Source: an uncultured Anaerolinea sp. (GTDB lineage Bacteria; Chloroflexota; Anaerolineae; Anaerolineales; Anaerolineaceae). From it: 34,423 nucleotides of DNA. The translations under genes and the position numbers were made by a program. Positions 13,482 to 34,423 of the stretch are shown one piece after another. A model generated the notes under the pieces. That model was not told the origin of the DNA. It did not search any database and worked only from the letters and a program-made list of their open reading frames with translations. Location: the NCBI GenBank assembly GCA_964606265.1, contig CAZSGL010000002.1:1-34423 (forward strand). Direction: 5' to 3'. The number at the start of each line of letters is the position of its first letter. The first letter of the stretch is position 1.

Positions 13482-13499
13482 AATTATTCGATCGTCTGC

Positions 13500-16113: not shown

Positions 16114-16115
16114 TT

Positions 16116-16958
16116 TTACTCATTATCTTGCGTGAGGGGAGTGTAATCAACAGGTTTAAAATTCGTAATAATTAACACTGCCCGAAGTTTAGAGAAATCG
16201 ACAACAGGTTGCACAGACGCGCTTTGAAACAAGGAATCGCGTCCAAGTCCCGGAGTTAATACCTGACCAACCAATATATCAGCAGGATAAGATCCACCAA
16301 GTCCTGAGGTAAGTACAAGATCACCCTGTTCCAGTTTGACATCAAGATTTACCATTTCAAGAGTTAGATCACCAGAGACTGATCCGGAAATTTGTGCTTC
16401 TGAGTCGGCGTTTTCAAGCCTGATGTTAACAACTGAATCAGGGTCTGTAATCAATTGCACTCTTGCCGCGGTAGCAGTAACAGCATCGATATGACCTACC
16501 AAACCTTGCTGTGTTACCACTGGCATCCCTTTCAGGACTCCATCATCAGAACCATGGTCAATAATAATATAGTTGAGAAACGGGCTCGGGTCCCTGCCAA
16601 TAACCGACCCAGCGATGTATTTATTTTCAGGCCTTGTCCTGGCAAAATCCAACAATGCATAGAGAATGTCTGTTTCAGATACTTGTTGTTTTAATATTAA
16701 TATTTCTGATTGAAGTTCAGATATCTCGTTTCGTAAATCTGCATTTTCTTGCTGCAAGCTTGTAACGTCACGGGGAAGCGTGAGAAACTCTTCAAATGCC
16801 TGGACACGTATTGCCAGCCAGGATTGGGTATCAACTAGCGGAGAAATTGTCTTCCCGATGATCTTGCCTAATAATCCGCTAAGCGCTAAAAATAAAATCC
16901 CGATTACCACTAAGCCCAAGACAATTGGCTGCCAGTTTTTAATCCTGACTTTTTTCAT
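16116..16958 (-). CDS. mreC: Rod shape-determining protein MreC
   Basis: 280 aa. It has an N-terminal TM helix, a coiled coil (LQQENADLRNEISELQSEILILKQQ) and a beta-barrel region (GMPVVTQQGLVGHIDAVTATAARVQLITDPDS). Confidence 0.92.
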   Translation of the reverse strand: MKKVRIKNWQPIVLGLVVIGILFLALSGLLGKIIGKTISPLVDTQSWLAIRVQAFEEFLTLPRDVTSLQQENADLRNEISELQSEILILKQQVSETDILYALLDFARTRPENKYIAGSVIGRDPSPFLNYIIIDHGSDDGVLKGMPVVTQQGLVGHIDAVTATAARVQLITDPDSVVNIRLENADSEAQISGSVSGDLTLEMVNLDVKLEQGDLVLTSGLGGSYPADILVGQVLTPGLGRDSLFQSASVQPVVDFSKLRAVLIITNFKPVDYTPLTQDNE

Positions 16959-16974
16959 TCATCCTAATTTCAAT

Positions 16975-18276: not shown

Positions 18277-18380
18277 CTTTCTTTCCCATTAGTTCGCATA
18301 ATACTTGCAATTAGTCATTGAGTACCAAGCAGTATTGCTTGGGACTTTGCATAACGGTAAGTAGTTTCCTGATGAATTAA

Positions 18381-18389
18381 TGCTAAAAT
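18381..18389 (+). promoter_or_regulatory. Possible extended -10 promoter (TGcTAAAAT) for the signalling operon
   Basis: TGCTAAAAT at 18381-18389 is followed by SD GAGG (18401-18404) and ATG 18410. No good -35 element is present. Confidence 0.35.
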
Positions 18390-18409
18390 TTTTGTACCTC
18401 GAGGTATTT

Positions 18410-18802
18410 ATGAATAATAGAAAAGTCATTCTTCATGTCGAAGATAATATTGATAACCGTGTATTAGTCAAAAGGCTACTGGAGTCTTCTTCATTCCATG
18501 TTGTTGAAGCCGTTAATGCCTTTGAGGCAATCACCTGCCTACGCAGATACCGGCCTGATCTTATCCTCATGGATATCAATATTCCTGATGTTGACGGATA
18601 TACCTTAACTTCAAAGTTAAAAACTGTTCCTGGAGTTCGTAATATTCCAATTATAGCCATTACAGCGAATGCCATGCGGGGAGATCGAGAAAAGACCCTT
18701 CGCGCAGGCTGTGATGGTTATGTCGAAAAACCAATTGACATCGACAATTTTCTGTCGCAAATCCACCAATTTCTCGGAAATCACAATAACCAGGGATTCT
18801 GA
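18410..18802 (+). CDS. Single-domain CheY-like response regulator receiver
   Basis: The preferred start is ATG 18410 (SD GAGG 5 nt upstream), not the track's 18380. Receiver motifs are VEDN, the phospho-acceptor context LILMDINIPDVDG, AITAN and GYVEKPI. No output domain is present. Confidence 0.9.
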   Translation: MNNRKVILHVEDNIDNRVLVKRLLESSSFHVVEAVNAFEAITCLRRYRPDLILMDINIPDVDGYTLTSKLKTVPGVRNIPIIAITANAMRGDREKTLRAGCDGYVEKPIDIDNFLSQIHQFLGNHNNQGF

Positions 18803-19248
18803 TGACAAACGAAAACCTCCCTGTCGCGCCTTACGAAGAAATATACGCAAATTTACAAAATAAAACTGTTCTCGTAGTTGAAGATAACATTGGAAATTTC
18901 ATGTTGATTGCCAGAATGTTAACTAATTACGGGGTCCATTGCGAATGGAAAACTTCAGGTTTTGAAGTCGTGGAATTTGCCGCTACGCTCTCAAGCCTAG
19001 ATCTTGTATTAATGGATATACGCTTGCCCTATGAAGATGGTTATGGCGCTATGCGAAAGATCAGGAAATCAGGTGAGTTCGAAAACATTCCAATTGTTGC
19101 GGTAACTGCCAATACTGGATTGGAGCAAATGCGTAGTGCTCAGATGGCAGGTTTTGATGGTTTTATTGGTAAACCATTAAATCCCGATCGTTTTCCGGAC
19201 CAGATTAACAGGATCCTCACAGGAAAACCTGTTTGGGAATGCAACTAA
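18802..19248 (+). CDS. Single-domain CheY-like response regulator receiver (second copy)
   Basis: 148 aa. Receiver motifs are VVEDN, LVLMDIRLPYEDG, AVTAN and GFIGKPL. The start overlaps the previous stop (TGATG). Confidence 0.9.
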   Translation: MTNENLPVAPYEEIYANLQNKTVLVVEDNIGNFMLIARMLTNYGVHCEWKTSGFEVVEFAATLSSLDLVLMDIRLPYEDGYGAMRKIRKSGEFENIPIVAVTANTGLEQMRSAQMAGFDGFIGKPLNPDRFPDQINRILTGKPVWECN

Positions 19249-19257: not shown

Positions 19258-22200
19258 ATGTCTGAACAATTTGCCAGTACACCCATCCAGGAGAAGCAAC
19301 CGGTCTTTCGCAAAAACCTTGTTCAACGGGTTTTGATTGGTCTACTTTTAATTGCTCTTATACCAATTCTAATTATAAGTACAGTGACATTTATTCGTAC
19401 TCGTAATACAGTCCAATCTCAAGCCCTGGGTCAGTTAGCGTCTTTAGCTGATTCCTATTCTTTTCAAATTGAGCAATTTGTTGCAACCCGGCGCCAGGCG
19501 CTTGATCAGATCAACCAATCTGCCGGTTTTGACTCTAATGTTGCGGTACTATTCCAGGGAAGAACCGCCTCAACCTACTTCTTTGCACTTTCTTCGCTCA
19601 CAAACTACATTAATCAATATATTGAAACACCAACAGAAAAAATATTCGACCAAGTCTCCATTGTAGATATCGATGGCACTGTTCTAGTTTCATCAAACCC
19701 AGACCTCACAGGAACCATTCTTTCAGATAGTTACATCATCAGGTCAATGTATCAGCTTAATAAATCAGTATTAGCTTATGACCCGGGTGGTTTATTCCCT
19801 GGACAGGTGGTTCTAATTACTAGCAAGATATACATAAATCCAGAAGGTGCACCTGGACTTACTTTGGTAGGTTTTTCTGCATCGCCAGTCCCTCTTTCCC
19901 AATTAAATACCTCCCAATCATTCTTTGAATCCAGTGCGGGTTTTATCCTTGCCACCGATAATAACTTGATCACAACTGACCAAAAAACAATTTCTCCAAT
20001 TATCGTTCCACAAACCAGTGATGAGTTAGGCGCAATCCAGTCTCGCTTAACCTCTGGTGGATTGGGAACCCAATATCAGTATATCGACAAAAGCGGAGCT
20101 CAGGTTTTTGGTTACTATAAGAATTTACCCGCAGTATCTTCTAATTTAATAATTGAAGTTCCCCAATCCGTTGTTCTTGGTCAGCTTCAAGATCTCCTTC
20201 CATTTACCCTCATCCTATTAACTGCACTGATGTTGATCTCTGCAATAATTGTGTACATTTCGTCAAGGAGAATTGTAAAACCATTAGTTGACCTGGCAAA
20301 CGATGCCCAAACATTTTCGGCTGGAGACTGGTCTTATCGAGCTAAAGTTGAAAGAGACGATGAAATTGGATTGTTAGCTTACTCCTTCAATAATATGGTT
20401 GATCAGTTGACCGGTTATTATTATTCTCTTGAAGAAAAAGTTGAGTCACGAACCCAGCAGCTCCGACTTGCTGCAGAAATTGCTCAAGAAGCCAGTAAGG
20501 GACTCACCCAGGGGGATATACTCCATCAGGTTTCAGTTGCCATTTCTGAAAAACTGGAAATCCCATACCATGCGGTTTATTTGATTGACAATGTTTCGAG
20601 AACTGCTTCTCTACTAGAACAGAACTCAACCCTCTCCGATACCTTACCAGAGAAAAATTCGATAATCCCAATTAATAATGAATCCATGGTTGGTTGGTCA
20701 GCTGTCAATAAGCAACCGCGAACATCAGGAAACATCCGGGCAGAGAATGATTTCACCAATACTCAGGGAATTTTAGATTCTACATCAAGTCAAATTACTC
20801 TACCTGTTATTGTTGACGAAGAGGTTGTAGCGGTATTGGATTTCCAGAGTGACAGACCTAATGTGTTTGACAATGAATCGCTGACTGTTTTTTCCACCTT
20901 GTCTGACCAATTGGCCACCGGTCTTCGCAATATCCAGGTGGTTGAAACTGCTACTGTAGGTCTGCGTGAAACTAACGCCTTGTATAGCACCAGCCGACAA
21001 GTGACTGTCGCCCATTCTATCGAGGAGGTGACGGAACACCTGGCCTTCTTATTCAACCAGACTCAATATGTTAGTTTCTTTTTCAGTGTTCTTGGTGATC
21101 AGATTCACCTCATTAATGTTACTGATCCCAAAGGGACTAGGTTGGACCAATCATTGAAGGGTTTTAATATTCCCTTGGGAAAAGGTCTCACAAGGCTAAC
21201 AAATAATCCTATGCTAATTTTGGATGACCTGAAGACAGAATCTGACTTCAGCAACCTGAGTGTCTATTTTGAACGTAGAGGCTGCACTTCTATTGCGCTT
21301 CTACCCATTAGCATTACAAATGATCTTGGCTACCTCCTGGTAATGGGTTCTCGTGAACATGAACCTTTTTCAATTCTGCAGATTCAACCGTACATCAATT
21401 TAACAGAAGTAGTTGGGGCAACACTGGAACGTGTTACTCTCCTTTCAACATTAAATCAACGCGTAAAAGAGCTTGATACTTTGTCTTCAATCAGTCAATC
21501 TGCAACAACTGCCACTAATATTGAAGACCTTTTTGAAAGGGTCCATCAAGAGCTGATTCAAACTTTGGGCTCCAACCTTGGTTTCTCGGTCATACTAAAT
21601 AACATTGATCAAGCATCTCTTTCCATCGCATACTACAAAGATGACGAAAAACTGATCATTCCTGCCTATCCTTACACTGATGATCTTTTTTCTTTACTGG
21701 TCACAAAAGGCGAACCTATATTGCACAGAGATGCTTCTGTCCTTGGTTTGAGAACCGTTGACTTTGATCAGTTCACACTTTCTGCTAAATCCTGGTTAGG
21801 CATTCCTTTGATCCTGGGTGACCGCGTCCTGGGTGGTTTGGTTCTCTTTGATTCAAAAACATCCAATCGGTTTTCCACCGCAGATAGTGAGCTCATAAGC
21901 ACATTAGCTCCTCAAATTGCAGCCTCAATACAGAACACCGAATTAATCGCTTCCCAGGAAAGAGCCCTCAATGCATTTGAAGAAGAGAGATTCTTGTTGA
22001 ACTCACTTCTTAAGAATATTCCAGACGAAATTATCTTCAAAAACTCAAAAGGTGAATTTATCCGAATGTCTGATTCGGCATCCCTGTCCCTTGGAGCTGA
22101 GAATCCGGATTCTCTGGTTGGGAAACTGGATTCTGTTGACGAAATAACAGAGACTGAAACAGGTTTTGAATTGGAAGTTGATTCTGATCTTTCTGTTATT

Positions 22201-23574
22201 TCTCGTGCGACTCCACTCCTTGGAAAAATCGAACAGGTCGACAGCATTGGTGGAAATAAAGGCTGGGCTCTTACCAGTAAGATTCCATTATTGGATGAAT
22301 CTGGCAGTGTGTCAGCACTACTGAAAATTTCCCGTGATGTAACTGAGCTGGTTAATACTCAAAATATTGCGCGCCGCCGTGCAGATCAGTTATTGACCAC
22401 CAGCGAAATTGCCCGGGAAGCTACTACCGGTAACCTGGACATTGATGAAACTTTAAAACGTCTTGTGGACCTTGTTAAGAATCGTTTTGGTTTTTACCAC
22501 TCCTCGATCTTCCTGCTCGATGTGCTTGGTCAATTTGCTGTTCTCAGGGAATCTACTGGAGAAGCAGGGGCACAATTGAAAGAAAAAGGGCACAAACTCG
22601 CTGTGGGCTCTACATCAATTATCGGACAAACCACAGCAAGAGGCGAACCTGTTGTTGTTGGCGATGTGACAAAAGAATTGAATTATTATCCCAACCCATT
22701 GCTGCCAAATACTCGTTCAGAAATGGGTATCCCTTTGAAAATTGGCGATAAAGTATATGGAGCTCTTGATGTTCAGTCGGAAGAAGTGGATGCATTTACA
22801 TCGGAGGACATTAATATTTTGCGCGTTCTGGCTGACCAGTTAACAGTAACTATTCAAAATGCAAATCTCTATACCAAAACACAACAGACTCTAGAAAGAC
22901 ACAGATTATTGCAGCAATTAACGTCTTCTGCGGGTCAAAATATTACCATTGAAGATGCAACCAGAAATGCAGTTCAAGCGCTTCAACGAATTTTCCCACT
23001 TGAAAAAGTTACATATATGATATCAAGCTCTCCTGTCCATCTCAAAGTGAATTCCTACGCTGGTTATTCACCTGATTCTCTGTTATTCGATGAAATTACT
23101 AAAGGGCAAGGCATAATCGGCAAAGCTGGATCAGAAATTAAAGCACAACTTTCCATAGATATACCATCTTCTGATGAGGGTAACGCCTTATGCAAAGGCA
23201 CAAGATCGGTCCTTGCAGTGCCTGTTGCTTACGGTAACCGGTTAATGGGTGTTTTTGTGACAGAAAGTACAGAACCTGGGAAGTTTGATGAAAACGATCA
23301 GGAAATTGTGGCAACATTATCCAGCAATATGGCATCCTTAATTGCCAATATTGAACTTGTTGAGCAAATCAGGCTGCAGGTAGATCGGCAACGACAACTT
23401 TACGACATCACCAGTAAGATTCGCCGCTCTACCGACGTGGAGACAATCATGAAAACCTCGCTAGCTGAAATTTGTACAGCCCTCAATATTCGTAAAGCTT
23501 CAATTGAGCTGCTTCAGGACCAATCTGAGATTGAACCTGTTAGCGATTTAATGAATTTACAGAAGGGTAAATAA
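19258..23574 (+). CDS. Membrane sensor protein: TM, Cache-like ectodomain, TM, HAMP, multiple GAF, PAS-like, GAF x2, then a C-terminal GAF stub; no recognisable output domain
   Basis: 1438 aa. SD AAGGAG lies upstream of ATG 19258. The TM helices are LIGLLLIALIPILIISTVTFI and FTLILLTALMLISAIIVYI. The HAMP is RRIVKPLVDLA...DEIGLLAYSFNNMVDQL. There are several GAF-like modules, including the conserved subtype at about 22371-22875 (FGFYHSSIFLLD...NPLLPNTRSEMGIPLKIGDKVYGALDVQS). No H-box, GGDEF, EAL or HTH motif is visible by eye. Confidence 0.9.
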   Translation: MSEQFASTPIQEKQPVFRKNLVQRVLIGLLLIALIPILIISTVTFIRTRNTVQSQALGQLASLADSYSFQIEQFVATRRQALDQINQSAGFDSNVAVLFQGRTASTYFFALSSLTNYINQYIETPTEKIFDQVSIVDIDGTVLVSSNPDLTGTILSDSYIIRSMYQLNKSVLAYDPGGLFPGQVVLITSKIYINPEGAPGLTLVGFSASPVPLSQLNTSQSFFESSAGFILATDNNLITTDQKTISPIIVPQTSDELGAIQSRLTSGGLGTQYQYIDKSGAQVFGYYKNLPAVSSNLIIEVPQSVVLGQLQDLLPFTLILLTALMLISAIIVYISSRRIVKPLVDLANDAQTFSAGDWSYRAKVERDDEIGLLAYSFNNMVDQLTGYYYSLEEKVESRTQQLRLAAEIAQEASKGLTQGDILHQVSVAISEKLEIPYHAVYLIDNVSRTASLLEQNSTLSDTLPEKNSIIPINNESMVGWSAVNKQPRTSGNIRAENDFTNTQGILDSTSSQITLPVIVDEEVVAVLDFQSDRPNVFDNESLTVFSTLSDQLATGLRNIQVVETATVGLRETNALYSTSRQVTVAHSIEEVTEHLAFLFNQTQYVSFFFSVLGDQIHLINVTDPKGTRLDQSLKGFNIPLGKGLTRLTNNPMLILDDLKTESDFSNLSVYFERRGCTSIALLPISITNDLGYLLVMGSREHEPFSILQIQPYINLTEVVGATLERVTLLSTLNQRVKELDTLSSISQSATTATNIEDLFERVHQELIQTLGSNLGFSVILNNIDQASLSIAYYKDDEKLIIPAYPYTDDLFSLLVTKGEPILHRDASVLGLRTVDFDQFTLSAKSWLGIPLILGDRVLGGLVLFDSKTSNRFSTADSELISTLAPQIAASIQNTELIASQERALNAFEEERFLLNSLLKNIPDEIIFKNSKGEFIRMSDSASLSLGAENPDSLVGKLDSVDEITETETGFELEVDSDLSVISRATPLLGKIEQVDSIGGNKGWALTSKIPLLDESGSVSALLKISRDVTELVNTQNIARRRADQLLTTSEIAREATTGNLDIDETLKRLVDLVKNRFGFYHSSIFLLDVLGQFAVLRESTGEAGAQLKEKGHKLAVGSTSIIGQTTARGEPVVVGDVTKELNYYPNPLLPNTRSEMGIPLKIGDKVYGALDVQSEEVDAFTSEDINILRVLADQLTVTIQNANLYTKTQQTLERHRLLQQLTSSAGQNITIEDATRNAVQALQRIFPLEKVTYMISSSPVHLKVNSYAGYSPDSLLFDEITKGQGIIGKAGSEIKAQLSIDIPSSDEGNALCKGTRSVLAVPVAYGNRLMGVFVTESTEPGKFDENDQEIVATLSSNMASLIANIELVEQIRLQVDRQRQLYDITSKIRRSTDVETIMKTSLAEICTALNIRKASIELLQDQSEIEPVSDLMNLQKGK

Positions 23575-23575
23575 T

Positions 23576-25237
23576 ATGAACTATTTCCGTTCATTACTCC
23601 CCTCATACTCTCCACCTAATATTGACCCAAAGGATGAATTACGTGTCTGGCAGGAACGGTCACTGCAATACCTGCTGATCGGATTCGCCATAATCAGTGT
23701 AAGTGTCGCATTATTAATGATTCAATCCTCGAGTTTCACCGGAAATTGGACTTTATTCTTTAGTTTTGCTTTTCTTGCTCTAGCTTCTTTGGCACTTTTT
23801 CTCCTCAGGAATGTCTCTTATTGGATCCGGTCAATTTCCGCTCTGGTTGCTTTTTACATTGTAGCTACGGTTGTTTTTATCCGTAGCGGTTGGGGTGGTG
23901 TTGCTCTCCTCATGCTCATTTCTTTTTCCTTTCTCGCAACTATTTTTCTTTACAATAAACCATCAAGGATAGGCTTAGGTTTGAGTATTGGTACGCTCTT
24001 ATTCTGGGCAGTCCTCCGCAGCACTGCACTAGTTCCGGGAATTGTTGAATCATCCAACATACTCACCCTGATCATCGACGTTGTATTGGTCTTATTTATT
24101 GGAGTCGTGGGTAATTTTGCCATTTCAACATTGAAAAAGAAATTCCTTGATGAGCATAATAAGTTAACGAGTTCTGAATTAGCTAGAGAAGAACTGCATA
24201 GACAATTAGAGCTTCAGAAAACAGACCTTGAAAAGAGAGTTTTCCAATTACGTACCGCTTCAGAGATCACCCAAACAGCCTCAACGATTTTCGAAGCCCA
24301 GGCTTTGTTACAGAAAGTGGCAGAACTGGTTCGGGAGCGATTCGACCTCTATTACATCGGGATTTTTCTGCTTGATGAAGCAAAAGAGTATGCCGTTTTG
24401 CGCTATGGCACAGGTGATGCTGGCCGAAGAATGATGGCAGCAAAGCACAAGCTGGCAGTTGGTGGCTATTCAATGATTGGATGGGCTACCCAAACCAGGA
24501 AATCAAGAATTGCACTGGATGTCGGAGAAGAAGCAGTGCATTTTGATAATCCGTTACTTCCAGAAACACGGTCTGAACTAGCATTGCCCATCATCGGTGC
24601 AAATGTTGTTTACGGTGCTATGACGGTCCAATCGACATTGGTTAACGCATTTGATGAAAATGACGTATTAATTCTTCAAAGTGTTGCCGATAGTCTTGCC
24701 GTCGCCCTCGAAAACGCTTCCTCATTCCAAAAATCACAGAAAGCCATGGATGATATCCGTGTTTTGAATCGTGCCTATATTAAACAAGCTTGGTGGGATA
24801 CGCTCGATTTGAACCGCGAAATGAAATTTGACTTTGAAAACCCAGAATCCATTGAAATGCCGGAGAATCCAAACACCATTGAGGTCCCACTGGTTTTACG
24901 TGATGAGGTGATTGGTAAAATCAACCTTGAATTTGATGGTTCTGAAGTTTCAAAGGAGATGCAAGAATTTTTGGATACGATATCCTCCCAAACAACAGTT
25001 GCGCTTGAAAACGCCAGGTTGATTGAGGAAACGCAGCTCGCAGCTTTACAGGAGCAACAATTAAATGCCCTTACAGCCCAGTTTTCGAGAGCAGTTACTA
25101 TTGAAGAAATTCTAAAGACAGCGGTTATGGAATTTGGCAAACTTCCTTCTGTAAGTGAGGCGTCAATCGCACTTATCCCACCTGAAGAGAATGAAAGCCG
25201 CGAACTAAGACCTTTCACCAGTAAGGAGGTGAAATGA
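23576..25237 (+). CDS. Polytopic membrane protein (about 6 TM), coiled coil, GAF, half-GAF module, then a GAF stub; no output domain
   Basis: 553 aa. It starts 1 nt after the previous stop. The GAF is FDLYYIGIFLLDE...NPLLPETRSELALPI. The protein then continues YIKQAWWDTL...VPLVLRDEVIGKINLEF...ALENARLIEE and ends with ...ILKTAVMEFGKLPSVSEASIALI. Confidence 0.88.
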   Translation: MNYFRSLLPSYSPPNIDPKDELRVWQERSLQYLLIGFAIISVSVALLMIQSSSFTGNWTLFFSFAFLALASLALFLLRNVSYWIRSISALVAFYIVATVVFIRSGWGGVALLMLISFSFLATIFLYNKPSRIGLGLSIGTLLFWAVLRSTALVPGIVESSNILTLIIDVVLVLFIGVVGNFAISTLKKKFLDEHNKLTSSELAREELHRQLELQKTDLEKRVFQLRTASEITQTASTIFEAQALLQKVAELVRERFDLYYIGIFLLDEAKEYAVLRYGTGDAGRRMMAAKHKLAVGGYSMIGWATQTRKSRIALDVGEEAVHFDNPLLPETRSELALPIIGANVVYGAMTVQSTLVNAFDENDVLILQSVADSLAVALENASSFQKSQKAMDDIRVLNRAYIKQAWWDTLDLNREMKFDFENPESIEMPENPNTIEVPLVLRDEVIGKINLEFDGSEVSKEMQEFLDTISSQTTVALENARLIEETQLAALQEQQLNALTAQFSRAVTIEEILKTAVMEFGKLPSVSEASIALIPPEENESRELRPFTSKEVK

Positions 25238-26967
25238 TTAGCCCTACACCACCATCCAACGAAACCAAATTTTCCCGGTCAGAGGTATCACACCACTCGA
25301 TTGATGAATTAAAGACCATACTTCTGCAAAATTATCTTAGTGGATCGATCATTCTTGGGACAGTCGTATTTTTTATCAGCCTTTTCGTCTCAATTCAAAA
25401 GCAGGATTATGTAACCGCAATACTCGTGACAATAATTTTCCTGGTTTTATTCATCATCACGTTCGTTCGCAGCATCAATACAAATATCCGTACGGTGACA
25501 TTGGCTTTTCTTTATATTGCCACAGGCGTGTTGAGTATTCTGTCTTCCGGTATTAATTCCAACGCAATCTTGTACTTTTTCACTTCAATATTGTTATTGG
25601 GAATTATGTTGCGTGGTTTATGGTGGGTAGCCGGGTTGATATTTGAAGGAATTCTCATTTCAGTCATGGGATTGTTGATCCAATTTAATTTGATTCAATT
25701 GGATACAATTTTTCGCTCAGAGAATTCTATCGTCAACTGGTTCACAACGATCACAATGACTCTTTTCATGGCGTTTGTTGTTGTCTCTCCTCTTGCACAA
25801 TATATTTCTGCCTTGAGATCCCAAAAGACTAATTTGGAAGCAGAAAAAGAAGTCCAGGACTTCAACAACTCGCGCCTTAATGAAAGAATTTCCGCTTTAG
25901 AGACAGAAGTCGATAAAAGAAGATCGAAAATGCTCGCAGCCAGGCAGATTTCGCGAGAAATTACACAACAGAGTGGATTACAGGAAATGTTAAATGAGTC
26001 TGTTGATTTGGTGTGTACACAATTTGAATTCTATTATGCAGCCATATTCCTATCTGATGAAAGGAATGAGTTTGCTGTTTTACGAGCTGCCAGTGGCGAA
26101 TCAGGTAAACAACTTCTCTCACAAGGTCATAAATTGAGGATTAGAGAAGAGGGTATTGTTGGATACGTTGTTGCCCGCGGAGAAACCAGGTTAGCTCTTG
26201 ATGTTGGTGAAGATTCAGTTCATTTTAAGAACCCTCTTTTACCTGACACTAGATCTGAGATCGGAATTCCATTAAAAATCGGACCCAAAGTTATCGGAGC
26301 ATTGGATGTTCAATCAGATAAAGAGACTGCTTTTTCTGAGGAGGATATTGATATCCTGCAGTCAATTGCTGATCAACTTGCTTCGGCTATTGATAAGTCA
26401 ATCTATATCGGCGACTTAGAGTCTCAGGTAAAGGAACTTATTATTGGTTCTGGAGAATCCACACGTGGTGTGTGGCGGTCACATCTCTATGGTTCAAAGC
26501 GGAATCTTTCCTATATTTACCGGGACGATCAATTGACCAGCGCAGTAGCCACCCCATTATTGAGTGATTTTTCCGAGACAACTATAGAAGGATATGCTTC
26601 TGATACTGAGGAAGGTGAAACAAACTCACCAGTTACAGTTTATTCACTTCCAATTAAATTAAGGGATCAAGTTCTTGGGTTGATTAAAGTCCGGTATAGC
26701 GGCAAAAAAATGCCTGTTAGGATGGTCAACCTGGTAAATACAGCCACCAGTCGTCTTGCAATTGCTTTGGAAAACGCTCGATTACTTGAAAACATCCAGG
26801 AACGCGCAGAACGTGAACATACAGTGGGGGAAATTTCAACAAAGGTTCGCGCATCCCAAACCATTGAAGCAATTATGCAAACAGCAGTCTCCGAACTCGG
26901 AAAGACACTTGGCGTCAATGAGGTAAGTATCCAATTAAAAACAACTGACAACACTGATCAAGAATAG
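25234..26967 (+). CDS. Polytopic membrane protein (about 6 TM), coiled coil, GAF, half-GAF module, then a GAF stub; no output domain
   Basis: 577 aa. SD AAGGAGGTG is present and the start forms an ATGA overlap with the previous stop. The GAF is FEFYYAAIFLSDE...NPLLPDTRSEIGIPLKIGPKVIGALDVQS. The half-GAF module is LPIKLRDQVLGLIKV...ALENARLLEN. The stub is ...IMQTAVSELGKTLGVNEVSIQL. Confidence 0.88.
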   Translation: MISPTPPSNETKFSRSEVSHHSIDELKTILLQNYLSGSIILGTVVFFISLFVSIQKQDYVTAILVTIIFLVLFIITFVRSINTNIRTVTLAFLYIATGVLSILSSGINSNAILYFFTSILLLGIMLRGLWWVAGLIFEGILISVMGLLIQFNLIQLDTIFRSENSIVNWFTTITMTLFMAFVVVSPLAQYISALRSQKTNLEAEKEVQDFNNSRLNERISALETEVDKRRSKMLAARQISREITQQSGLQEMLNESVDLVCTQFEFYYAAIFLSDERNEFAVLRAASGESGKQLLSQGHKLRIREEGIVGYVVARGETRLALDVGEDSVHFKNPLLPDTRSEIGIPLKIGPKVIGALDVQSDKETAFSEEDIDILQSIADQLASAIDKSIYIGDLESQVKELIIGSGESTRGVWRSHLYGSKRNLSYIYRDDQLTSAVATPLLSDFSETTIEGYASDTEEGETNSPVTVYSLPIKLRDQVLGLIKVRYSGKKMPVRMVNLVNTATSRLAIALENARLLENIQERAEREHTVGEISTKVRASQTIEAIMQTAVSELGKTLGVNEVSIQLKTTDNTDQE

Positions 26968-26981
26968 TCAGTGGAGGAAAG

Positions 26982-29918
26982 ATGATAAATACTCAAAAAG
27001 AAGCGCTGAGCAATTCTCGACCGGATAGAAAACCGATTGCCATTAATCCAAGGTTGTTCATTCTAAGCCTTGTCATCCTTTCGGGAATTCTCTCGATTGC
27101 TTTCATTTTCATTTCAATCTATACAGGGATCTCATCCTTCTTCCTTCTCGCTGCAGGGTTCACGCTAACCACGCTTCTCGGTTTATTGGCTATAACCAAG
27201 TACTGGCTGGCTCAAGAGTCCGTAAAATTATTAATTTTTGCATTGTTATTTGAACTATCCATAATCCTATCATCAACGATATTACCGTCGTATTCAGGAT
27301 TTCCCTACTCGATAATTGCACTAACAACTGCATTTCTCATTACAACATCATTCGCCACATCAGCAAACACCGACTGGGTCATTTGGACAGGTCTCCTGGG
27401 GGCAATCGGCTCAATCTTGTTTAGTATTTTGGCTCCGTTGCCTCAAATAATTAACTCAAACATCCAACTTGCTGTGGTCATCCTGGCAGGTTTCTTCCTG
27501 ATGATTTTGGTTTTCTTACTCTTCTTTGGAAATCTTCGGATAAACCTGCGTGTTAAATTGATTTTAGGAGCGCTCGCTCTTTCTCTAATCCCTATTACAG
27601 CTCTCGCGTTGATCAATAACCAATACCTTATGACATCCATTCAGCAACAAGCTAACGATTCTCTTAACGTTGCGGCAGCTCAAACATCATCTGAAATTGA
27701 CGGTTTCTTACTTGAAAACCTCGAATCGGTGGCGAGTGAAGCCAGTTTACCGGCATTGGTCGATTATCTGGCTCTTGATCCTCAAGTTAGGCAAGGGTCA
27801 TCTGAGGAACAGGAGGTTTTGGTAACAATTCGTTCATTGCAGACAAAACAAAAGGTCTATCTTCCTTCTTATGCTATTCTAAATTTCGTCGGCGCGAATG
27901 TAATCGACACATCGGAAATAAACATTGGCACTTCCGAGAGGACGACTTCATACTTTAGGCAATCAGCGATAACCGGTGCTGCTTTTATTTCACCTGTTGA
28001 ATTTATCCCTGGAACGCGTGAAGCATACATCAATTTTATTTCGCCAATTGTGAATCCCTCGAGACAAGTGATTGGTTACTTGCGCATTCGGTACGATGCG
28101 CGAATACTGCAATCCCTAATTGAAGATAATGTTGGTTTGATTGGAACAAGGTCCTATCCAGTTTTGTTGGATGAAAATGGAATGCGACTTGCGGATGGAT
28201 CTGCGCCAAACCTGGTATTCAGAACGATTAGCCAATTACCGACTGAGACTTTCAATAATTTAACCAGGGCGAACCGAATTCCTTCTTACCTGCCCCAATC
28301 ACTTCTCCATAACGTGCAGGAAGATATCGCCCGAGTGGCACTAACTGACAGAACATCAGATTACTTTACGACATCAACTTCAGCGGGTGGAACCACGCTC
28401 TCGCAGTTAGGAATCATCAAGACTCTCCAGTATCAATCCTGGAACGTTGTGTACTTACAAGACCAATCCTCATTGTTAGTGGCTATTATTAATCAGAACC
28501 GCCTGTCTGCAATTATCTCGACACTGATCGCAGCCCTTGTTGCTGTTTTTATTACAATCGTTGCTAATTCATTTTCAAGACCAATTATTCAATTGACAAA
28601 CGCGGCTGAAAAAATCTCTAAAGGTGATTTAGATGTACAGGCACCTGTTACATCAAAAGATGAGATTGGTTTATTGAGTACCTCTTTCAATTCGATGACA
28701 CGCCAGTTAAAGGAATTCATTGATACACTGGAAAACCGCGTTCGCGAACGTACTCAACAGCTGGCTCAACAGTACGAAACACTCCAATTTCGTTCGAGAC
28801 AGCTTCAAACCGTTTCTGATGTAGCCCGTGGCGTTGTTTCTTCTCGTGAAATTGAGTCCCTTCTGAATTCAGTTACGACATTAATTAGTGAGCGTTTCAA
28901 TTTCTACCATGTAGGTATTTTCCTGGTAGATGAAAAAAATGAAAATGCAATTTTGCGCGCAGCTAACTCCGTTGGTGGTAGGAAAATGTTAGCCCGTCAA
29001 CATAAGCTACAAGTTGGTCAAACCGGTATTGTCGGTTTTGTTACCGGAACTGGTTCACCTCGTATTGCTACTGATGTTGGTCAGGATGCAGTATTCTTTA
29101 ACAATCCGGATTTACCCGATACAAAATCTGAAATGGCACTCCCATTAAAAGTTGGCGATAGAACAATCGGCGCATTGGACGTTCAATCCGTTGAATCCAA
29201 TGCCTTTTCCAGCGAGGATATCGAACTCTTCTCAACACTGGCGGACCAGGTGGCGATCGCGATTAACAACAACCAGTTGTTCGAGGATACTGCCAAAGCC
29301 CTAGCGGAATCAGAGAGAGTCCACAGGCAATACCTCAACCAGGAATGGACAAGGCAATCGACTGAAGCTACTGCAAACAGTTACAAATACACACCAGATG
29401 GCTTAGTTCCATTTACTGAAGATCTTCCAGAAGTAAGAATGGTGTTGGAATCCGCAAGACCAGTATTCAAATCTCAAAAAGGCAATGAGAGTGAAAGTCA
29501 ATACAGCTCTTCATTGACAGTACCTATCCTGCTGCGTGGTGAGTCTATTGGCGTAATCCACCTGCAGGAAACAGATGACAAACCATTTACCTGGAGTCAG
29601 AACGATCTTCTCACTGTCCAAGAAGTAGCCAATCAAGTTTCACAATCTCTTGAAAATGCCCGATTATTCGAAGATACGATTCGCCGTGCTGATCGTGAGA
29701 GAAAAGTGCTTGAAATTACCAGTAAGATCAGGTCCACAAATGATCCTCAGCAGATGCTTCAGATTACTTTGGAAGAACTTAAAAAGAATCTTGGCGCAAG
29801 CAAAGCTCAAATAGTGTTTAATGTTGGTGAAATCCATGAAAATCAATCCCATTTAGACCAGCAAGATGATCCAGAAGAAACACATACTATTAATGAATCT
29901 GGAACTACCGAGGCGTAA
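26982..29918 (+). CDS. Polytopic membrane protein: Cache-like ectodomain, TM, HAMP, GAF, half-GAF module, then a GAF stub; no output domain
   Basis: 978 aa. SD GGAGG is present. The HAMP is SRPIIQLTNAAEKISKGDLDV...DEIGLLSTSFNSMTRQLKEF. The GAF is FNFYHVGIFLVDE...NPDLPDTKSEMALPLKVGDRTIGALDVQS. The half-GAF module is VPILLRGESIGVIHLQE...SLENARLFED. The stub is ...MLQITLEELKKNLGASKAQIVF. Confidence 0.9.
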   Translation: MINTQKEALSNSRPDRKPIAINPRLFILSLVILSGILSIAFIFISIYTGISSFFLLAAGFTLTTLLGLLAITKYWLAQESVKLLIFALLFELSIILSSTILPSYSGFPYSIIALTTAFLITTSFATSANTDWVIWTGLLGAIGSILFSILAPLPQIINSNIQLAVVILAGFFLMILVFLLFFGNLRINLRVKLILGALALSLIPITALALINNQYLMTSIQQQANDSLNVAAAQTSSEIDGFLLENLESVASEASLPALVDYLALDPQVRQGSSEEQEVLVTIRSLQTKQKVYLPSYAILNFVGANVIDTSEINIGTSERTTSYFRQSAITGAAFISPVEFIPGTREAYINFISPIVNPSRQVIGYLRIRYDARILQSLIEDNVGLIGTRSYPVLLDENGMRLADGSAPNLVFRTISQLPTETFNNLTRANRIPSYLPQSLLHNVQEDIARVALTDRTSDYFTTSTSAGGTTLSQLGIIKTLQYQSWNVVYLQDQSSLLVAIINQNRLSAIISTLIAALVAVFITIVANSFSRPIIQLTNAAEKISKGDLDVQAPVTSKDEIGLLSTSFNSMTRQLKEFIDTLENRVRERTQQLAQQYETLQFRSRQLQTVSDVARGVVSSREIESLLNSVTTLISERFNFYHVGIFLVDEKNENAILRAANSVGGRKMLARQHKLQVGQTGIVGFVTGTGSPRIATDVGQDAVFFNNPDLPDTKSEMALPLKVGDRTIGALDVQSVESNAFSSEDIELFSTLADQVAIAINNNQLFEDTAKALAESERVHRQYLNQEWTRQSTEATANSYKYTPDGLVPFTEDLPEVRMVLESARPVFKSQKGNESESQYSSSLTVPILLRGESIGVIHLQETDDKPFTWSQNDLLTVQEVANQVSQSLENARLFEDTIRRADRERKVLEITSKIRSTNDPQQMLQITLEELKKNLGASKAQIVFNVGEIHENQSHLDQQDDPEETHTINESGTTEA

Positions 29919-30682
29919 TGACCTATATTATTTCTATTGCGAACGAAAAAGGTGGCGTGGCAAAAACCACTACCACACTATCCCTTGGTGGTGCATTTGC
30001 TGAAATGGGTAAGCGTGTATTACTAGTGGATTTGGATCCACAATCAAACCTATCGCTATCTTTGGGAATTGAACCTGAGCAAAAGGTCTCCTCTATCATC
30101 AACCTCATTCTTGATAATGGAAATGTCCTGGATTGCGTTAAACCAACCAGGGTTGAGAACCTTTCCTTGCTCCCTTCAAACGCCGATATCAGGATGGCTG
30201 AACGAGTATTGCCAACAAAATCTGATTATCACTTGCTTTTACGAAACCTTTTGGCACCGTTAAGTGATCAATATGATTTTATCCTGATGGATTGTCCGCC
30301 GTTTTTAGGCGCGATCACATTAAATGCCCTCATTGCGGCGAATATACTTATCATCCCAACACAAGCTGAGTATTATTCCGTATTTGCCTTGCGAAATATG
30401 ATGGCCCTCATACGCCAAGTCAGAAGTTTGGGAAATCCCAATCTTCGTTATCGGCTGTTACTGACCATGTTTGATAAACGCAACGGTATCCATCGCAGCC
30501 TTGCAGAACATCTTCGAAATTCATTTTCAAGTGGTGTTCTTGATACTGTGATCGAAATTGATACGCGCTTAAGGGAGAGCCCCCTTGTTGGGCTTCCGGT
30601 AGTCTTCCACGCAACCAAGAGTCGATCTGCACTTCAATATCGGTTCCTGGCACAGGAGATCCTGAATTATGTCAAAAAATGA
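29918..30682 (+). CDS. ParA/MinD-family P-loop ATPase
   Basis: 254 aa. The deviant Walker A is NEKGGVAKTTTT, followed by VLLVDLDPQSN and Walker B FILMDCPPF. The start overlaps the previous stop (TAATG). Its last 14 nt overlap the next gene's start. Confidence 0.93.
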   Translation: MTYIISIANEKGGVAKTTTTLSLGGAFAEMGKRVLLVDLDPQSNLSLSLGIEPEQKVSSIINLILDNGNVLDCVKPTRVENLSLLPSNADIRMAERVLPTKSDYHLLLRNLLAPLSDQYDFILMDCPPFLGAITLNALIAANILIIPTQAEYYSVFALRNMMALIRQVRSLGNPNLRYRLLLTMFDKRNGIHRSLAEHLRNSFSSGVLDTVIEIDTRLRESPLVGLPVVFHATKSRSALQYRFLAQEILNYVKK

Positions 30683-33600
30683 AATTAACAACCGAATCAA
30701 TAAATTGTTTACTGGCATCCAAGACGGTGATGAATCAATTATTTCCGCATTGAGTGTTCAGAAATCAGATCAATTTTCATGGGAAAGTGATGCCAATGGA
30801 TTGTACACTCAGTGCAGTCAGGAGGTTACTCAAGTCCTTGGGTATTTACCGGAAGAAGTTATTGGTAATCCATTACTTTCCATAGGATTATCTTTTTCTG
30901 AGCAAAGCAAATTACGCAACGCATTGCAATCTGAATTGTTTCCCTGTGATGTTGAGCTTGTATTTCAAACAAAAAATGGACAATTTGTTACAACCCGATG
31001 TAATCTTTTTCAAAAGAGTAATTCAGAAGGAAAGCTTATTGGGTACCAGGGGATAGTTCTTCAACTTGATACTCAAATTGAGCATCTAGTTACCCCCGAT
31101 ATTCCTACCAGAGAATTAAATACCAATGATGCAGAAACTTCAGATGCAGATCCAGTAGATTCACATTTGTCTCTGCTCTCTGCAGGGATCCAAACGGGAA
31201 AATTACCTGAAATTGATGACAGTGTTACATATTCTCCAGAACCAATTTCGCCATCTGTTAAACCAACAAAAAAACGCCGTGAAGTAAAACCTAAAGAAAT
31301 CACACACCCACAAAAGTCCTCTTCTCAGTCCAGGGTAATTCAGACAGCGCCTCTCCCACCCATTTTTTCCGCGATTCCTCCTACTCCCATTGTGGATATT
31401 CCCTCGCTCGCTGATTCATTTACCGGTATTACCCTGCAGGAAAATGATTTTAAATCTGCGGAATCAACCTGGTCAAAACAAGCTGAATCTAGCCTGGTCC
31501 ACAATGAAACAATCTCTCAAAACGGAGATATTAATAATCCAGCGGTTATTGTTACACCTTTAAAATTACGTGACCGCCAAACAGCAGTAATCGAAGTATT
31601 AGATAGCGCTCCAGAGAGAAAGTGGACGCAAGCCGATCGCCTTCTAGTGCAAGAAATATCAACACAATTAGGTCTTGCTTTGGAAAATGCTCAACTTTAT
31701 TCAACAATTCAAAAAGAGTTGCGTGAAAGAGTAAAGGCTGAAGAAGAAACATTGAGACGTAATAGAGATCTTGCCACGTTGAACCAGATCGGTCAACGCT
31801 TAAGTCGCCTTGTTGGGCAGGAAGAGATCTTTGAAATAATCACAAGTATGTCTCAAGATATTTTAAACCAGAACAATATACTCGTATCAATATTTGATCC
31901 TGAGAAGAAACAACTTGCGTTTCCGGTTTGCCTTGTTGATGGAGAGAAACAGACCATTATTCCACGTAAATTATTGAATGGTTATCAGGAAACAATTCTG
32001 AAAAATAAAACTTCATTATTGGTTAACTCCGACCTTGTCCAGGTAATCTCTGAACCAACCTTTGATCACCCCAGGAACAAACCTCTTTCCCTTCTCGCCG
32101 TTCCATTATTGACAGCAGATAAAGCTATTGGCATCATCTCAGTTTACGATTTTGATAAGGAAAATGCGTTTTCCCAGGTACAAGCAGAATTACTTTCAAC
32201 CATCGCTTCTCAGGCAGCTACCGCTCTTGAGAATACCAACCTCTTCACAGAAATCCGCGATGCTCTCGCAATTATTGAAGTGAGGGAACTTTACCAATCT
32301 AATGTTACCAATGCTGTAGCTCGATTAAGCGAAAAAGGCTCGTCAGAAACTGATTTTCTACTCGAATCACTCTCCAAAGCCTCTTCCAGTGAACGTGTTT
32401 TTTACGCTCAGTCCGATGACGATCCAAAAATTGGAAAAGCCTGGTTCCCCAGGTCAATATATTGCCAACCGGGTTTTGAATTAAACATTAACCCCATGCC
32501 ATTTGAGAATTTTCCTAATTGGGTCGAGATGCTTGAAAACAAACCTTGGTTCAGCTATACGCAAAGCAATTGTCCTGAGCCAGAAAAACAATTCTTAATT
32601 GATAACGCGATTCAATCAGTACTAATGTTTTCAATCCGACTGGAAGATCAACCAGTAGGATGCATCGGTCTTTTGAATATTGCTTCTCCGATGGAGTGGA
32701 AATCTGAGCAAATTGACATTCTTACAATTGCTACAGATTCATTCAACAATACCCTTATCCGGGAAAGCTTGTTGAACAGGGTACAAGGTTCTTTGTCAGA
32801 AACCGAGAGTTTGTATTCTGCCTCCCACCAATTGGCATTAGCGGATGATATGCAAAAGATGCTTGAAGCTGTTATTGAAGGCACCAACGTCCAGGCGATC
32901 AACCGTGGTGTTCTGGTATTGTTTGATTATGATCCTAACAATCAAATCAGCCGGATGGCTGTTGAAGCCAACTATTACTCGGGCATTGGGACTCCTCCTC
33001 CAGTTCGGGGAACAGAATACCTGGTTTCACTGTATAAATCAATATTTATAACACAAAACCCGGTATTTTATGATGATCTATTAGAGATCCAACTGGAAAA
33101 ATCACTTCAAGACATCTTAACACGGCAAAATATACGGTCTATGGCTGTATTACCCCTCTGGTCCGCCAACAAGCAACTAGGTGTAATGCTTTTACAAACT
33201 CCACAAAAGCATACATTTTCACCTCAAGAGTTGAGAACCTATCCTCCCCTCTCAGACCAATTGTCAACCTCCATTCAAAACCTCCGCTTGTTCGAGGAAA
33301 CACAGGAAGCGTTGTCGGAGACCGAATTGCTTTATAAAATATCGAGTGGTATTGCGAAATCACATACTATGGAAGAACTTGTTCGGCTTGTCGGAGAAAA
33401 CGTTCTGCCCCAAAATGCTGACACGTTATGGTTATGCACGAGCACCTATAATACCCAGTCTAAATCGAATGACATTGAAGTGATAGGTTCATATTCATCA
33501 ACAGGTCAGTATTCAGTTTCCGGAATTAAATTGGATCCGGGAGTATTGTCCTTTATTGACTTTTCAAAAGCTGAACCGGAAGTCTTTTCAGATATTTCCA

Positions 33601-34423
33601 AGTCTGAACTTCCAGCCAATACACAGGGGATTTTTAGAAATCTATCCATAAACGCGGGTGCAATTTTCCCGCTTCAAACTAGTGGTAATCCCGTTGGGTT
33701 GTTGATCGCCAGTTCGAAGCGTGTTCAAGAATTTGACCCGAATGACATTCACACCATGCAAATCGTTTCCAATAGTATTGCGGTGGCACTCGAAAGGCAG
33801 AAACTACTCTTCGAAGCCCAAAGGCGTGCAATTGAACTTCAAACCGCTGCAGAAATCGCCAGAGATACTACCAGTACGCTATCACTCGAAATTCTGCTTA
33901 ATCGAATCGTCAACCTACTTAAGGATAGATTTGAGCTTTACCATGTATCCATTTTCCTGCTGGATGATACAAATACCTACGCACTTATCCAGGAATCCAC
34001 CGGAACTGCGGGCCAAGAATTAAAACGACGCAATTATCGGTTGGCTGTTGGTTCCAAATCAGTTATTGGTACTTGCACGGGTACTGGTGAGACGGTTGTT
34101 GTTAATGATACAACTCACAGTTCCATCTACTATCCCAATCCGCTTTTGCCAGATACACAATCCGAACTCGGACTCCCTTTGAAAATCAGCGGCAAGGTCA
34201 TTGGTGCCATTGACCTCCAATCGACTGAAATAAACGCATTCCCGCAAGAAGCGACTGCAATCCTCCAGATTCTCTCTGATCAGATTTCGGTAGCTATTGA
34301 TAACGCGAAAGCTTACGCCATTTCGCAGGAAGCCGTAGAAGAAATGCGCGAACTTGATCGTGTAAAAAGTCAATTCCTCGCGAACATGAGTCATGAATTA
34401 CGCACGCCTCTAAATTCAGTCAT
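30669..34423 (+). CDS. Large PAS/multi-GAF sensor histidine kinase, 3'-truncated by the window end
   Basis: This ORF is not in the supplied track because it has no stop codon in the window. ATG 30669 is preceded by AGGAG. I translated the frame (codon starts divisible by 3) at the start, near 31500, and at the end. The N-terminus reads MSKNEINNRINKLF... followed by a PAS-like segment (FSWESDANGLYTQCSQEVTQVLGYLPEEVIGNPLLS). Further on come VTPLKLRDRQTAVIEVLD...LALENAQLY, several GAF-like modules and the conserved GAF subtype (FELYHVSIFLLDD...NPLLPDTQSELGLPLKISGKVIGAIDLQS). The window ends in a HisKA H-box, RELDRVKSQFLANMSHELRTPLNSV. I did not translate every codon, but no competing long ORF exists in 30.7-34.4 kb. 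Confidence 0.88.
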   Translation, partial: MSKNEINNRINKLFTGIQDGDESIISALSVQKSDQFSWESDANGLYTQCSQEVTQVLGYLPEEVIGNPLLSIGLSFSEQSKLRNALQSELFPCDVELVFQTKNGQFVTTRCNLFQKSNSEGKLIGYQGIVLQLDTQIEHLVTPDIPTRELNTNDAETSDADPVDSHLSLLSAGIQTGKLPEIDDSVTYSPEPISPSVKPTKKRREVKPKEITHPQKSSSQSRVIQTAPLPPIFSAIPPTPIVDIPSLADSFTGITLQENDFKSAESTWSKQAESSLVHNETISQNGDINNPAVIVTPLKLRDRQTAVIEVLDSAPERKWTQADRLLVQEISTQLGLALENAQLYSTIQKELRERVKAEEETLRRNRDLATLNQIGQRLSRLVGQEEIFEIITSMSQDILNQNNILVSIFDPEKKQLAFPVCLVDGEKQTIIPRKLLNGYQETILKNKTSLLVNSDLVQVISEPTFDHPRNKPLSLLAVPLLTADKAIGIISVYDFDKENAFSQVQAELLSTIASQAATALENTNLFTEIRDALAIIEVRELYQSNVTNAVARLSEKGSSETDFLLESLSKASSSERVFYAQSDDDPKIGKAWFPRSIYCQPGFELNINPMPFENFPNWVEMLENKPWFSYTQSNCPEPEKQFLIDNAIQSVLMFSIRLEDQPVGCIGLLNIASPMEWKSEQIDILTIATDSFNNTLIRESLLNRVQGSLSETESLYSASHQLALADDMQKMLEAVIEGTNVQAINRGVLVLFDYDPNNQISRMAVEANYYSGIGTPPPVRGTEYLVSLYKSIFITQNPVFYDDLLEIQLEKSLQDILTRQNIRSMAVLPLWSANKQLGVMLLQTPQKHTFSPQELRTYPPLSDQLSTSIQNLRLFEETQEALSETELLYKISSGIAKSHTMEELVRLVGENVLPQNADTLWLCTSTYNTQSKSNDIEVIGSYSSTGQYSVSGIKLDPGVLSFIDFSKAEPEVFSDISKSELPANTQGIFRNLSINAGAIFPLQTSGNPVGLLIASSKRVQEFDPNDIHTMQIVSNSIAVALERQKLLFEAQRRAIELQTAAEIARDTTSTLSLEILLNRIVNLLKDRFELYHVSIFLLDDTNTYALIQESTGTAGQELKRRNYRLAVGSKSVIGTCTGTGETVVVNDTTHSSIYYPNPLLPDTQSELGLPLKISGKVIGAIDLQSTEINAFPQEATAILQILSDQISVAIDNAKAYAISQEAVEEMRELDRVKSQFLANMSHELRTPLNSV

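Follow-up and report, generated by a model that had tools for sequence, protein, structure and literature searches.

The subject of this work is a stretch of 34,423 nucleotides from an uncultured Anaerolinea sp. (contig CAZSGL010000002.1, referred to here as the window), which is a whole contig of a 2.3-Mb metagenome-assembled genome that is 65% complete. The window contains a co-directional operon encoding two CheY-like receivers, four membrane sensors (p1 to p4), a ParA/MinD-like ATPase and a histidine kinase (p5). Each of the four sensors ends in a short segment, denoted here as the stub, which profile comparisons identify as the junction helix (α0), helix α1 and strand β1 of a GAF domain of the phytochrome/cyanobacteriochrome class. 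In a conserved multi-sensor operon of Anaerolineae and Thermoflexales, all sensors terminate in this stub as their signature. As for its function, we infer, tentatively and with somewhat less than even confidence, that the stub is the pairing or docking end-piece of the sensors, placed at the tip of the sensor dimer. The four sensor genes are the following (aa, amino acids):

19258..23574, plus strand: p1, the 'P1-type' sensor, with dCache-HAMP, three GAFs, PAS, the main GAF, a further full GAF (aa 1206-1369) and the stub, from Pfam and a structural model.
23576..25237, plus strand: p2, with MASE11, the main GAF, a Trp-module and the stub, from Pfam and the architecture map.
25234..26967, plus strand: p3, with MASE11, the main GAF, a Trp-module and the stub, from Pfam and an AlphaFold model of aa 385-577.
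26982..29918, plus strand: p4, with dCache-HAMP, the main GAF, a Trp-module and the stub, from Pfam and the architecture map.

Pfam detected only dCache, MASE11, HAMP, PAS and GAF domains in p1 to p4 and no output domain in any of the four, which agrees with their description as 'output-less' in an earlier, sequence-only reading of this DNA. That reading had quoted a terminal peptide of about 44 residues for each protein, and the four peptides lie at the C-termini of the open reading frames (ORFs) listed above. All four sites were found, although the first had been placed one nucleotide off (its frame runs from 23383, not 23384). The stub itself is real, but its length had been underestimated: the conserved unit comprises 52 residues and starts about 6-8 residues earlier, right behind the ENARL-type end of the preceding helix. 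With a stub hidden Markov model (HMM), the units were delimited as follows:

23365..23520, plus strand: stub of p1 (aa 1370-1421), 90 bits, with a genome profile match at 23365-23517 and a 17-aa tail.
25028..25183, plus strand: stub of p2 (aa 485-536), 85 bits, with a 17-aa tail.
26791..26946, plus strand: stub of p3 (aa 520-571), 91 bits, with a 6-aa tail.
29673..29828, plus strand: stub of p4 (aa 898-949), 89 bits, with a 29-aa acidic tail.

After the unit there is a short variable tail and then the stop; counted from the ends of the quoted peptides, the tails of p1 to p4 measure 19, 19, 9 and 32 residues, so the chain does end soon after them, as had been stated. The stub thus consists of α0, α1 and a β1-like segment, and it has neither strands β2-β5 nor helices α2-α4, hence none of the elements of the GAF pocket. 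Because the proteins end 9-32 residues past the quoted peptides, just beyond β1, a pocket for a small molecule or a chromophore is absent from the stub. When the six-frame ORFs of the 65%-complete genome were searched with an HMM made from the four stubs, only p1 to p4 were matched, and no GAF opening was matched significantly either.

The claim that the stub resembles the opening of a GAF domain was upheld by profile matches to solved GAF structures, by alignment to the GAFs of the window and by structural alignment to tandem GAFs, and the similarity far exceeds chance in the four-stub HMM, in a profile of 37 stub sequences and in the profile-profile comparison alike. Pfam matched neither of its GAF families PF01590 and PF13185 to the isolated stubs and gave only noise (ACT_4, DUF555, PspA), because the stubs are too short. 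The 37-sequence profile, compared with solved structures, matched the N-termini of GAF domains with E = 1e-11 to 1e-3. The best match (6OAP residues 137-181, E = 1e-11) is the start of an internal second GAF, while in the other structures listed (8W26, 6BHN, 2LB5, 8K9O, 6UV8, 6OZA, 3OOV, 6XHG, 5ZOH and 3W2Z) the profile spans the first ~45 residues of the GAF; the majority of the matched structures are domains of the cyanobacteriochrome or phytochrome class. The match to the full GAF openings of the same proteins, asserted in the sequence-only reading, was reproduced when the stub was compared by hhalign with the window's own five "main" GAFs, stub columns 3-50 aligning with GAF columns 1-48 (E = 1.1e-4, probability 57%).

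When the 200 C-terminal residues of p3 were compared by phmmer with 1.8 billion representatives, 15,632 matches were returned, 5,172 of them with E < 1e-10. In giant tandem-GAF proteins, query residues ~90-195, which comprise a β-hairpin, helix α5 and the stub, matched 7-15 times, at every GAF-to-GAF junction. In Foldseek, the model of the last GAF and stub of p1 aligned over 218-240 columns with GAF-PHY and GAF-GAF tandems (218 for 8W26) versus ~155 with single GAFs; the p3 model gave only weak matches to GAF/phytochrome junctions (E >= 0.04). The stub also keeps the core-facing hydrophobic pattern of true GAF openings. With profile similarity at this level of significance, the stub is not merely the terminal helix of the preceding domain, devoid of likeness to GAF.

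Pfam found no HisKA match in p1 to p4, and the 37-sequence stub alignment contains no invariant histidine. A phospho-acceptor role for the histidine in the 'EREH' of p3 was considered and rejected, since this position is R, Q or K in other paralogues.

The stub is also the part of these proteins that varies least. Among 38 non-redundant orthologues of p3, its α0, α1 and β1 have an entropy of 0.85-0.97 bits, the lowest of the whole protein; the main GAF reaches 1.51 bits, the membrane domain 2.16 and the tail 2.3. The p1 orthologues, too, have their lowest entropy in the stub, and the block hairpin-α5-α0-α1-β1 constitutes the best-conserved 100 aa of the p2-p4-type proteins. The motif was retained in all orthologues examined and was missing from none. 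Such a pattern in the sequences indicates that the stub is held by strong purifying selection. Each paralogue, moreover, retains its own version of the stub in operons that are just 33-43% identical. The p1 version is recognized by EICxALNIRK (LQVERQRQLYDITSKIRRSxDxETIMxTSxxEICxALNIRK across 30 orthologues), that of p2 by LPSVxE, kept in the L001 and L002 orthologues, and that of p3 by EREHxVxxIS...EVxIQLK. The p4 version reads RADRERKVLEITSKIR..DPQ, and its orthologues retain RADRERKVLEITSKIRSxxDPQ. A conserved cysteine lies within α1 of the p1-type stub (E-I/V-C-x-A-L-N) in 23 of the 31 P1-type C-termini examined; those without it (P0293-P0299) include the most diverged orthologues, and in the other paralogues G or a different residue takes its place.

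The position of the stub is equally constant. Of the 255 copies that the four-stub HMM detected in 271 related proteins, 196 are no more than 60 aa away from the C-terminus. A collection of 720 copies, drawn from 1,334 ORFs and proteins, has 633 at no more than 60 residues from that end and 499 at no more than 20. Within the phylum, 17 of 151 genomes carry the stub, each with one main locus of 3-14 tandem copies. Thirteen operons were mapped, and their form is two receivers, 3-12 sensors, in most cases ParA, and the kinase, with ParA at the same place in 10 of the 13. All 100 sensors located between receivers and kinase in these operons end in the stub, 2-36 residues from the C-terminus, and none of the kinases carries one. 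The order receiver, receiver, P1, three further sensors, optional ParA and kinase recurs in most of 80 further genome loci, and the sensor genes begin with the P1-type one in 11 of the 13 mapped operons and in most of those 80 loci that reach the operon start. Three operons (L002, G015 and G031) have no ParA and keep all their stubs, and the gene order differs in L070 and in L053/L054.

The carriers belong to Anaerolinea, Levilinea, Longilinea, Bellilinea, Thermanaerothrix and Thermoflexales. The cultured Thermanaerothrix solaris 4228-RoL and T. daxensis GNS-1 (L062, L063) have the canonical operon, with two receivers, P1, three sensors, ParA and kinase. The 3-12 stub-ended sensors of an operon form one unbroken row (L003 and L004, which are G043:C1:1840001-1880000; also G019, G139, G067, G055 and G015). 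Such rows point to sensor genes that were repeatedly duplicated whole and in tandem, while their N-terminal input domains (MASE11, dCache-HAMP or CHASE4-HAMP) were exchanged. Source annotations call these sensors just "GAF domain-containing protein", and in the literature searched on truncated, partial, split or circularly permuted GAFs and on MASE11, neither the stub nor the operon was found; both are apparently undescribed.

Insight into the arrangement of the stub came from AlphaFold models of p3 (aa 385-577) and p1 (aa 1205-1438), built on shallow alignments of 29 and 23 sequences, respectively. In both, the last helix of the preceding domain runs unbroken for ~45 residues with a predicted local confidence (pLDDT) of ~90, kinks at the R.S.D motif and is followed by a helix of 15-16 residues. 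In the p3 model these helices span 111-155 and 160-175 and lead into an unpaired segment of pLDDT 77-89; in the p1 model they span 141-186 and 190-204, and the unpaired segment (205-216) has a pLDDT of 57-77. The conserved β1-like segment is not called a strand in either model. The true GAF opening present in the p1 model (helix 2-21, helix 27-41, strand 46-52) shows the same local pattern as the stub.

Covariation was analyzed by mean-field direct coupling analysis (DCA) of 593 unique terminal blocks (hairpin-α5-α0-α1-β1; effective number of sequences, 387). As a positive control, the top pairs recovered the β4-β5 ladder and the contacts between the sheet and α5. Within the stub, the top 104 pairs include 14 between α0 and α1, 8 between α1 and β1, and 7 between α0 and β1; none of these 104 pairs couples β1 of the stub to β5 of the preceding module, and the pairs that connect the stub with that module at all are weak and number only about five. 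Because the couplings fall almost wholly inside the stub and the models show a continuous helix, the stub is predicted, with support from both, to be a self-contained α0-α1-β1 unit that prolongs the preceding helix without folding back on the module in front of it.

The nature of that module was examined by mapping the domain architecture with a main-GAF HMM and the lengths of the gaps. All sensors have one conserved main GAF in common. In every sensor but the first, it is followed by a module of 95-133 residues, denoted here as the Trp-module, which opens with a Trp helix (Y..Q.W) and a GY.Y hairpin. The P1-type first sensor of canonical operons has a complete second GAF instead, in a gap of constant length (165 residues). 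The three Trp-modules of the window are these:

24728-25027, plus strand: Trp-module of p2 (aa 385-484), from the architecture map.
26395-26790, plus strand: Trp-module of p3 (aa 388-519), from the AlphaFold model.
29283-29672, plus strand: Trp-module of p4 (aa 768-897), from the architecture map.

In the model (pLDDT 79), the p3 module has a long N-terminal Trp helix, two hairpins, one of them β1-β2, a weak fifth strand and a C-terminal helix. Disordered loops (pLDDT < 60) occupy the places where the pocket helices α2-α4 would sit, with an entropy of 2.8 bits versus 1.1-1.4 for the hairpin and α5. The Trp-modules of p2 to p4 resemble GAFs stripped of their pocket helices, and ligand binding in the usual GAF pocket is unlikely in them. 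As modeled, the 'half-GAF' of p3 is a stripped but topologically complete mini-GAF, and those of p2 and p4 are assumed from sequence to be alike. The idea that the preceding half-GAF is an incomplete domain awaiting the stub does not hold for p3, whose module has its own Trp helix, β1-β2 hairpin and five strands. Nor does the stub appear to complete a neighboring half-GAF: in p1 it follows a complete GAF, no β1-β5 covariation was found, and β1 is unpaired in both models.

A half-module that lacks a stub behind it is found in the kinase:

30669..34423, plus strand: p5, a GAF-rich histidine kinase that runs off the contig, with PAS, four to five GAFs and the start of HisKA in Pfam, and no stub-HMM match.
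31431..31709, plus strand: stub-less half-module of p5 (aa ~255-347), half-module HMM 92 bits, a candidate stub receptor.

In the half-module of p5, a short Trp helix leads into the β-hairpin AVIVTPLKLRDRQTAVIEVLD, and RKWTQADRLLVQEISTQLGLALENAQLY is the helix that follows. Canonical kinases begin with a basic N-terminal peptide (M[SP]KK..RL[DN].LF), often followed by a PAS and a low-complexity spacer, and then by the hairpin and a helix of the form W[ST]xx[DE]..LL...QL.LALENA.L[FY]. The kinases of G043, G019, G139, G067 and G055 have only low-complexity sequence ahead of the hairpin. The short Trp helix precedes the hairpin in three of the four kinases inspected closely, and some relatives have hairpin and α5 only. 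A regular expression detected the N-terminal module in 36 of 53 kinases, which is an under-count, as four P1-containing negatives read by eye all have ENAEL/ENAML variants. The membrane-type kinases of G015 and G031, whose operons have 3-12 stub sensors, lack it. Between genera, the kinase half-module is more strongly conserved than the sensors' own modules.

The basic amphipathic peptide M[SP]KK..(N/K)RL[DN].LF..I occupies aa 1-20 of p5 (30669-30728), where it reads MSKNEINNRINKLFTGIQDG. It is present in L001, in L002 and in the kinases of G043, G019, G139, G067, G085, G103 and G055. Of the 10 mapped operons that have ParA, 9 allowed it to be read, the exception being G112, whose kinase ORF has an ambiguous start. 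The membrane-type kinases of the ParA-less G015 and G031 lack it, and L002 has the peptide without ParA. The peptide may interact with ParA and stimulate its ATPase, in the manner of ParB or MinE.

The preferred reading of the stub as a pairing or docking end-piece would integrate these observations as follows. Helices α0 and α1 and strand β1 are predicted to pack as a small unit at the far end of the ~45-residue continuous helix. This unit would form the tip of the dimer spine, the place at which the family's kinases go on into the next GAF or into the DHp. The hydrophobics of the stub that would face the core of a GAF, together with the free edge of β1, would have to be buried, either by pairing with the second copy in a homodimer, closing the spine, or by binding a partner encoded in the operon. 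Either route would couple many different input domains to a single kinase. Capping, or closing of the dimer, is no less likely a role than the docking onto another protein's incomplete GAF that the sequence-only reading had offered beside it.

Several points weigh against the preferred reading. The packing is read only from secondary-structure (DSSP) strings, pLDDT and covariation. A strictly conserved β1 is more than a plain coiled-coil cap would require, and the conserved stub-less half-module of the kinase hints at a more specific split-domain mechanism. Some α0-α1 and α0-β1 couplings misfit the register of a simple antiparallel hairpin, and may reflect a native GAF-like crossing geometry or intermolecular contacts. 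Lastly, the many tandem GAFs that AlphaFold has seen may bias it toward an unbroken junction helix, and the 29 and 23 sequences behind the models make for shallow alignments.

The split-domain mechanism just mentioned would have α1 and β1 of the stub insert into the N-terminal half-module of the kinase, forming a composite mini-GAF that couples sensor to kinase. In GAF and PAS folds, the first strand adjoins the last strand and α1 packs beside α5; for this reason the stub and the kinase half-module, a strongly conserved hairpin and helix with no stub behind it in canonical kinases, would be complementary, and the two orphan pieces would be structurally contiguous. The proposal would also account for the retention in the stub of the core-facing hydrophobic pattern, and for the presence in each canonical operon of exactly one protein with the stub alone (P1) and one with the module alone (the kinase). 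A hint of the fusion type is provided by P0036, P0130 and P0138, in which an internal stub is followed in cis by one or more hairpins and α5 without the Trp helix. However, there are 4-12 stubs for each kinase half-module, the kinases of G015 and G031 have no orphan module in spite of their 3-12 stub sensors, and the paralogous stubs keep their own versions and do not converge on one interface. Furthermore, with the short Trp helix in three of the four kinases inspected, the kinase module may be as self-sufficient as those of the sensors. On balance, docking of this kind is considered unlikely, although of the specific alternatives it is the most interesting.

Similarly improbable, at about the same level, is that the stub docks on another component of the system, be it a receiver, the ParA-like ATPase, the downstream PALP-receiver protein described below or neighboring sensor dimers in a lattice. 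The receivers, and usually ParA, are constant companions of the sensors, the free edge of β1 would suit edge-strand addition, and paralogue-specific versions of the stub would fit distinct contacts. Nothing specific, however, points to any of these partners, and the ParA-less L002, G015 and G031 keep all their stubs.

Two further arrangements would bring the stub into the Trp-modules of the sensors, and both fare far worse. In the first, the Trp-module (β2-β5 and α5) and the stub (α1 and β1) would make up one circularly permuted GAF in cis, or a swapped homodimer. In p2 to p4 the stub does stand directly behind a module that Pfam scores as a partial GAF, the best-conserved 100 aa do run from the hairpin to β1, and a few weak couplings link body and stub (17-76, 25-82 and 9-98, z = 2.8-3.8). 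Nevertheless, a helix, a β1-β2 hairpin and five strands are already in place in the p3 module, the continuous 45-residue helix (pLDDT ~90) keeps the stub at a distance of ~50 Å from the sheet, the stub follows a complete GAF in p1 and in every P1-type protein, and no β1-β5 ladder appears in the top 104 DCA pairs, which did recover the true hairpin and the sheet-α5 contacts. The AlphaFold models and the covariation together led to the rejection of a circular permutation in cis as very improbable. In the second arrangement, each stub would plug into the Trp-module of its neighbor, the product of the gene that follows, in a chain ending on the kinase. The counts fit every canonical operon (in the window, four stubs against three sensor modules and one kinase module), with P1 having the stub only, the kinase the module only and the other sensors one of each; but the sensor module of p3 is complete in its model and the gene order differs in L070 and L053/L054, making such a chain even harder to credit.

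Although truncated domains do arise through gene decay, it is hardly conceivable that the stub has no function and is left over from a truncated GAF, or that it is just the terminal helix of the preceding domain, given that, β1 included, it is the best-conserved segment of the proteins, is found in every orthologue and paralogue examined, always stops at the same structural position and has significant homology to GAF openings. An origin as a pseudogene or split gene was also rejected: the next gene begins with a membrane domain, and orthologues keep the position of the stop.

The remaining genes of the operon in the window are these:

18380-18802 and 18802-19248, plus strand: two CheY-like receiver genes at the start of the operon (Pfam Response_reg, E = 7e-26 and 3e-19).
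29918..30682, plus strand: ParA/MinD-like ATPase (Pfam AAA_31, CbiA, MipZ and ParA).

The receiver pair stands upstream of the sensors in related operons as well, and the ParA-like gene overlaps both the stop of p4 and the start of the kinase gene. Directly upstream of the signaling operon, and divergent from it, lies a rod-shape cluster, mreB-mreC-(mreD)-pbp2-rodA (window 12390-18036, minus strand); the distantly related L002 has the same neighbor (1-2683), and L001 and G043 do not. In relatives, the kinase is followed by a fusion of ~550 aa between PALP, a pyridoxal-phosphate enzyme, and a receiver, and by an EamA transporter (L001 18824-21467; also G043, G019, G139, G067, G055 and G112). 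The contig of the window stops before the position of these genes.

Comparison with known systems helps to place the stub. With the openings of phytochrome and cyanobacteriochrome GAFs (6OAP 137-181, 8W26, 2LB5, 6BHN and 3W2Z) it shares homology over ~45 residues, the order helix-kink-helix-strand and the pattern ERE...I..KIR.S.D...IL.T.V.E....L....V.I; it differs in that the domain ends after β1, with no β2-β5, pocket or site for a chromophore or ligand, and in that its copies are mostly C-terminal. As at GAF-GAF and GAF-PHY junctions (phytochrome photosensory cores; GAF-A/B of PDE2A/5/6), α5 continues as a long helix into the next opening, but in p1 to p4 the second domain is reduced to its first three elements. 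The stub stands at the end of the sensor spine equivalent to that of the DHp hairpin of histidine kinases, and its helix-turn-helix could close a four-helix bundle; unlike the DHp, it has neither a HisKA match nor a conserved phospho-acceptor histidine, and there is no CA domain behind it.

A likeness can also be drawn to chemoreceptor arrays, in which many methyl-accepting chemotaxis proteins share one signaling tip that couples to one CheA, and which are sometimes positioned by ParA-like ATPases. Here, too, there are many paralogous membrane sensors with varied inputs and one conserved cytoplasmic end, together with one kinase, CheY-like receivers and a ParA-like ATPase. In contrast, the chemoreceptor signaling domain, CheW and CheA are missing here, and the shared end is GAF-derived. 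Finally, donor-strand complementation in chaperone-usher pilins, where an incomplete fold with a free strand or edge can be completed in trans, resembles p1 to p4 by analogy alone, its fold and cellular context being unrelated.

Output-less sensors are a standing puzzle of bacterial signaling, as it is unclear how the input they sense is passed on. The proteins described here make up a large and apparently undescribed family, with 3-12 paralogues per operon and hundreds of copies in the sample, whose one invariant feature, a truncated GAF opening, stands where the output domain should be. The stub offers a defined target of ~50 residues for the question of how such sensors couple to a shared kinase, with dimer closure, docking and split-domain complementation as the options to be told apart, and the cultured carriers T. 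daxensis GNS-1 and T. solaris provide a route to experiments. It is conceivable, though improbable on present evidence, that Anaerolineae wire many output-less sensors to one kinase via a split GAF, the assembly or geometry of the composite domain carrying the signal; if true, this would be a GAF-based form of many-to-one coupling between receptors and kinase, distinct from chemoreceptor arrays. The stub would also be a natural example of a conserved domain fragment that serves as a functional module.

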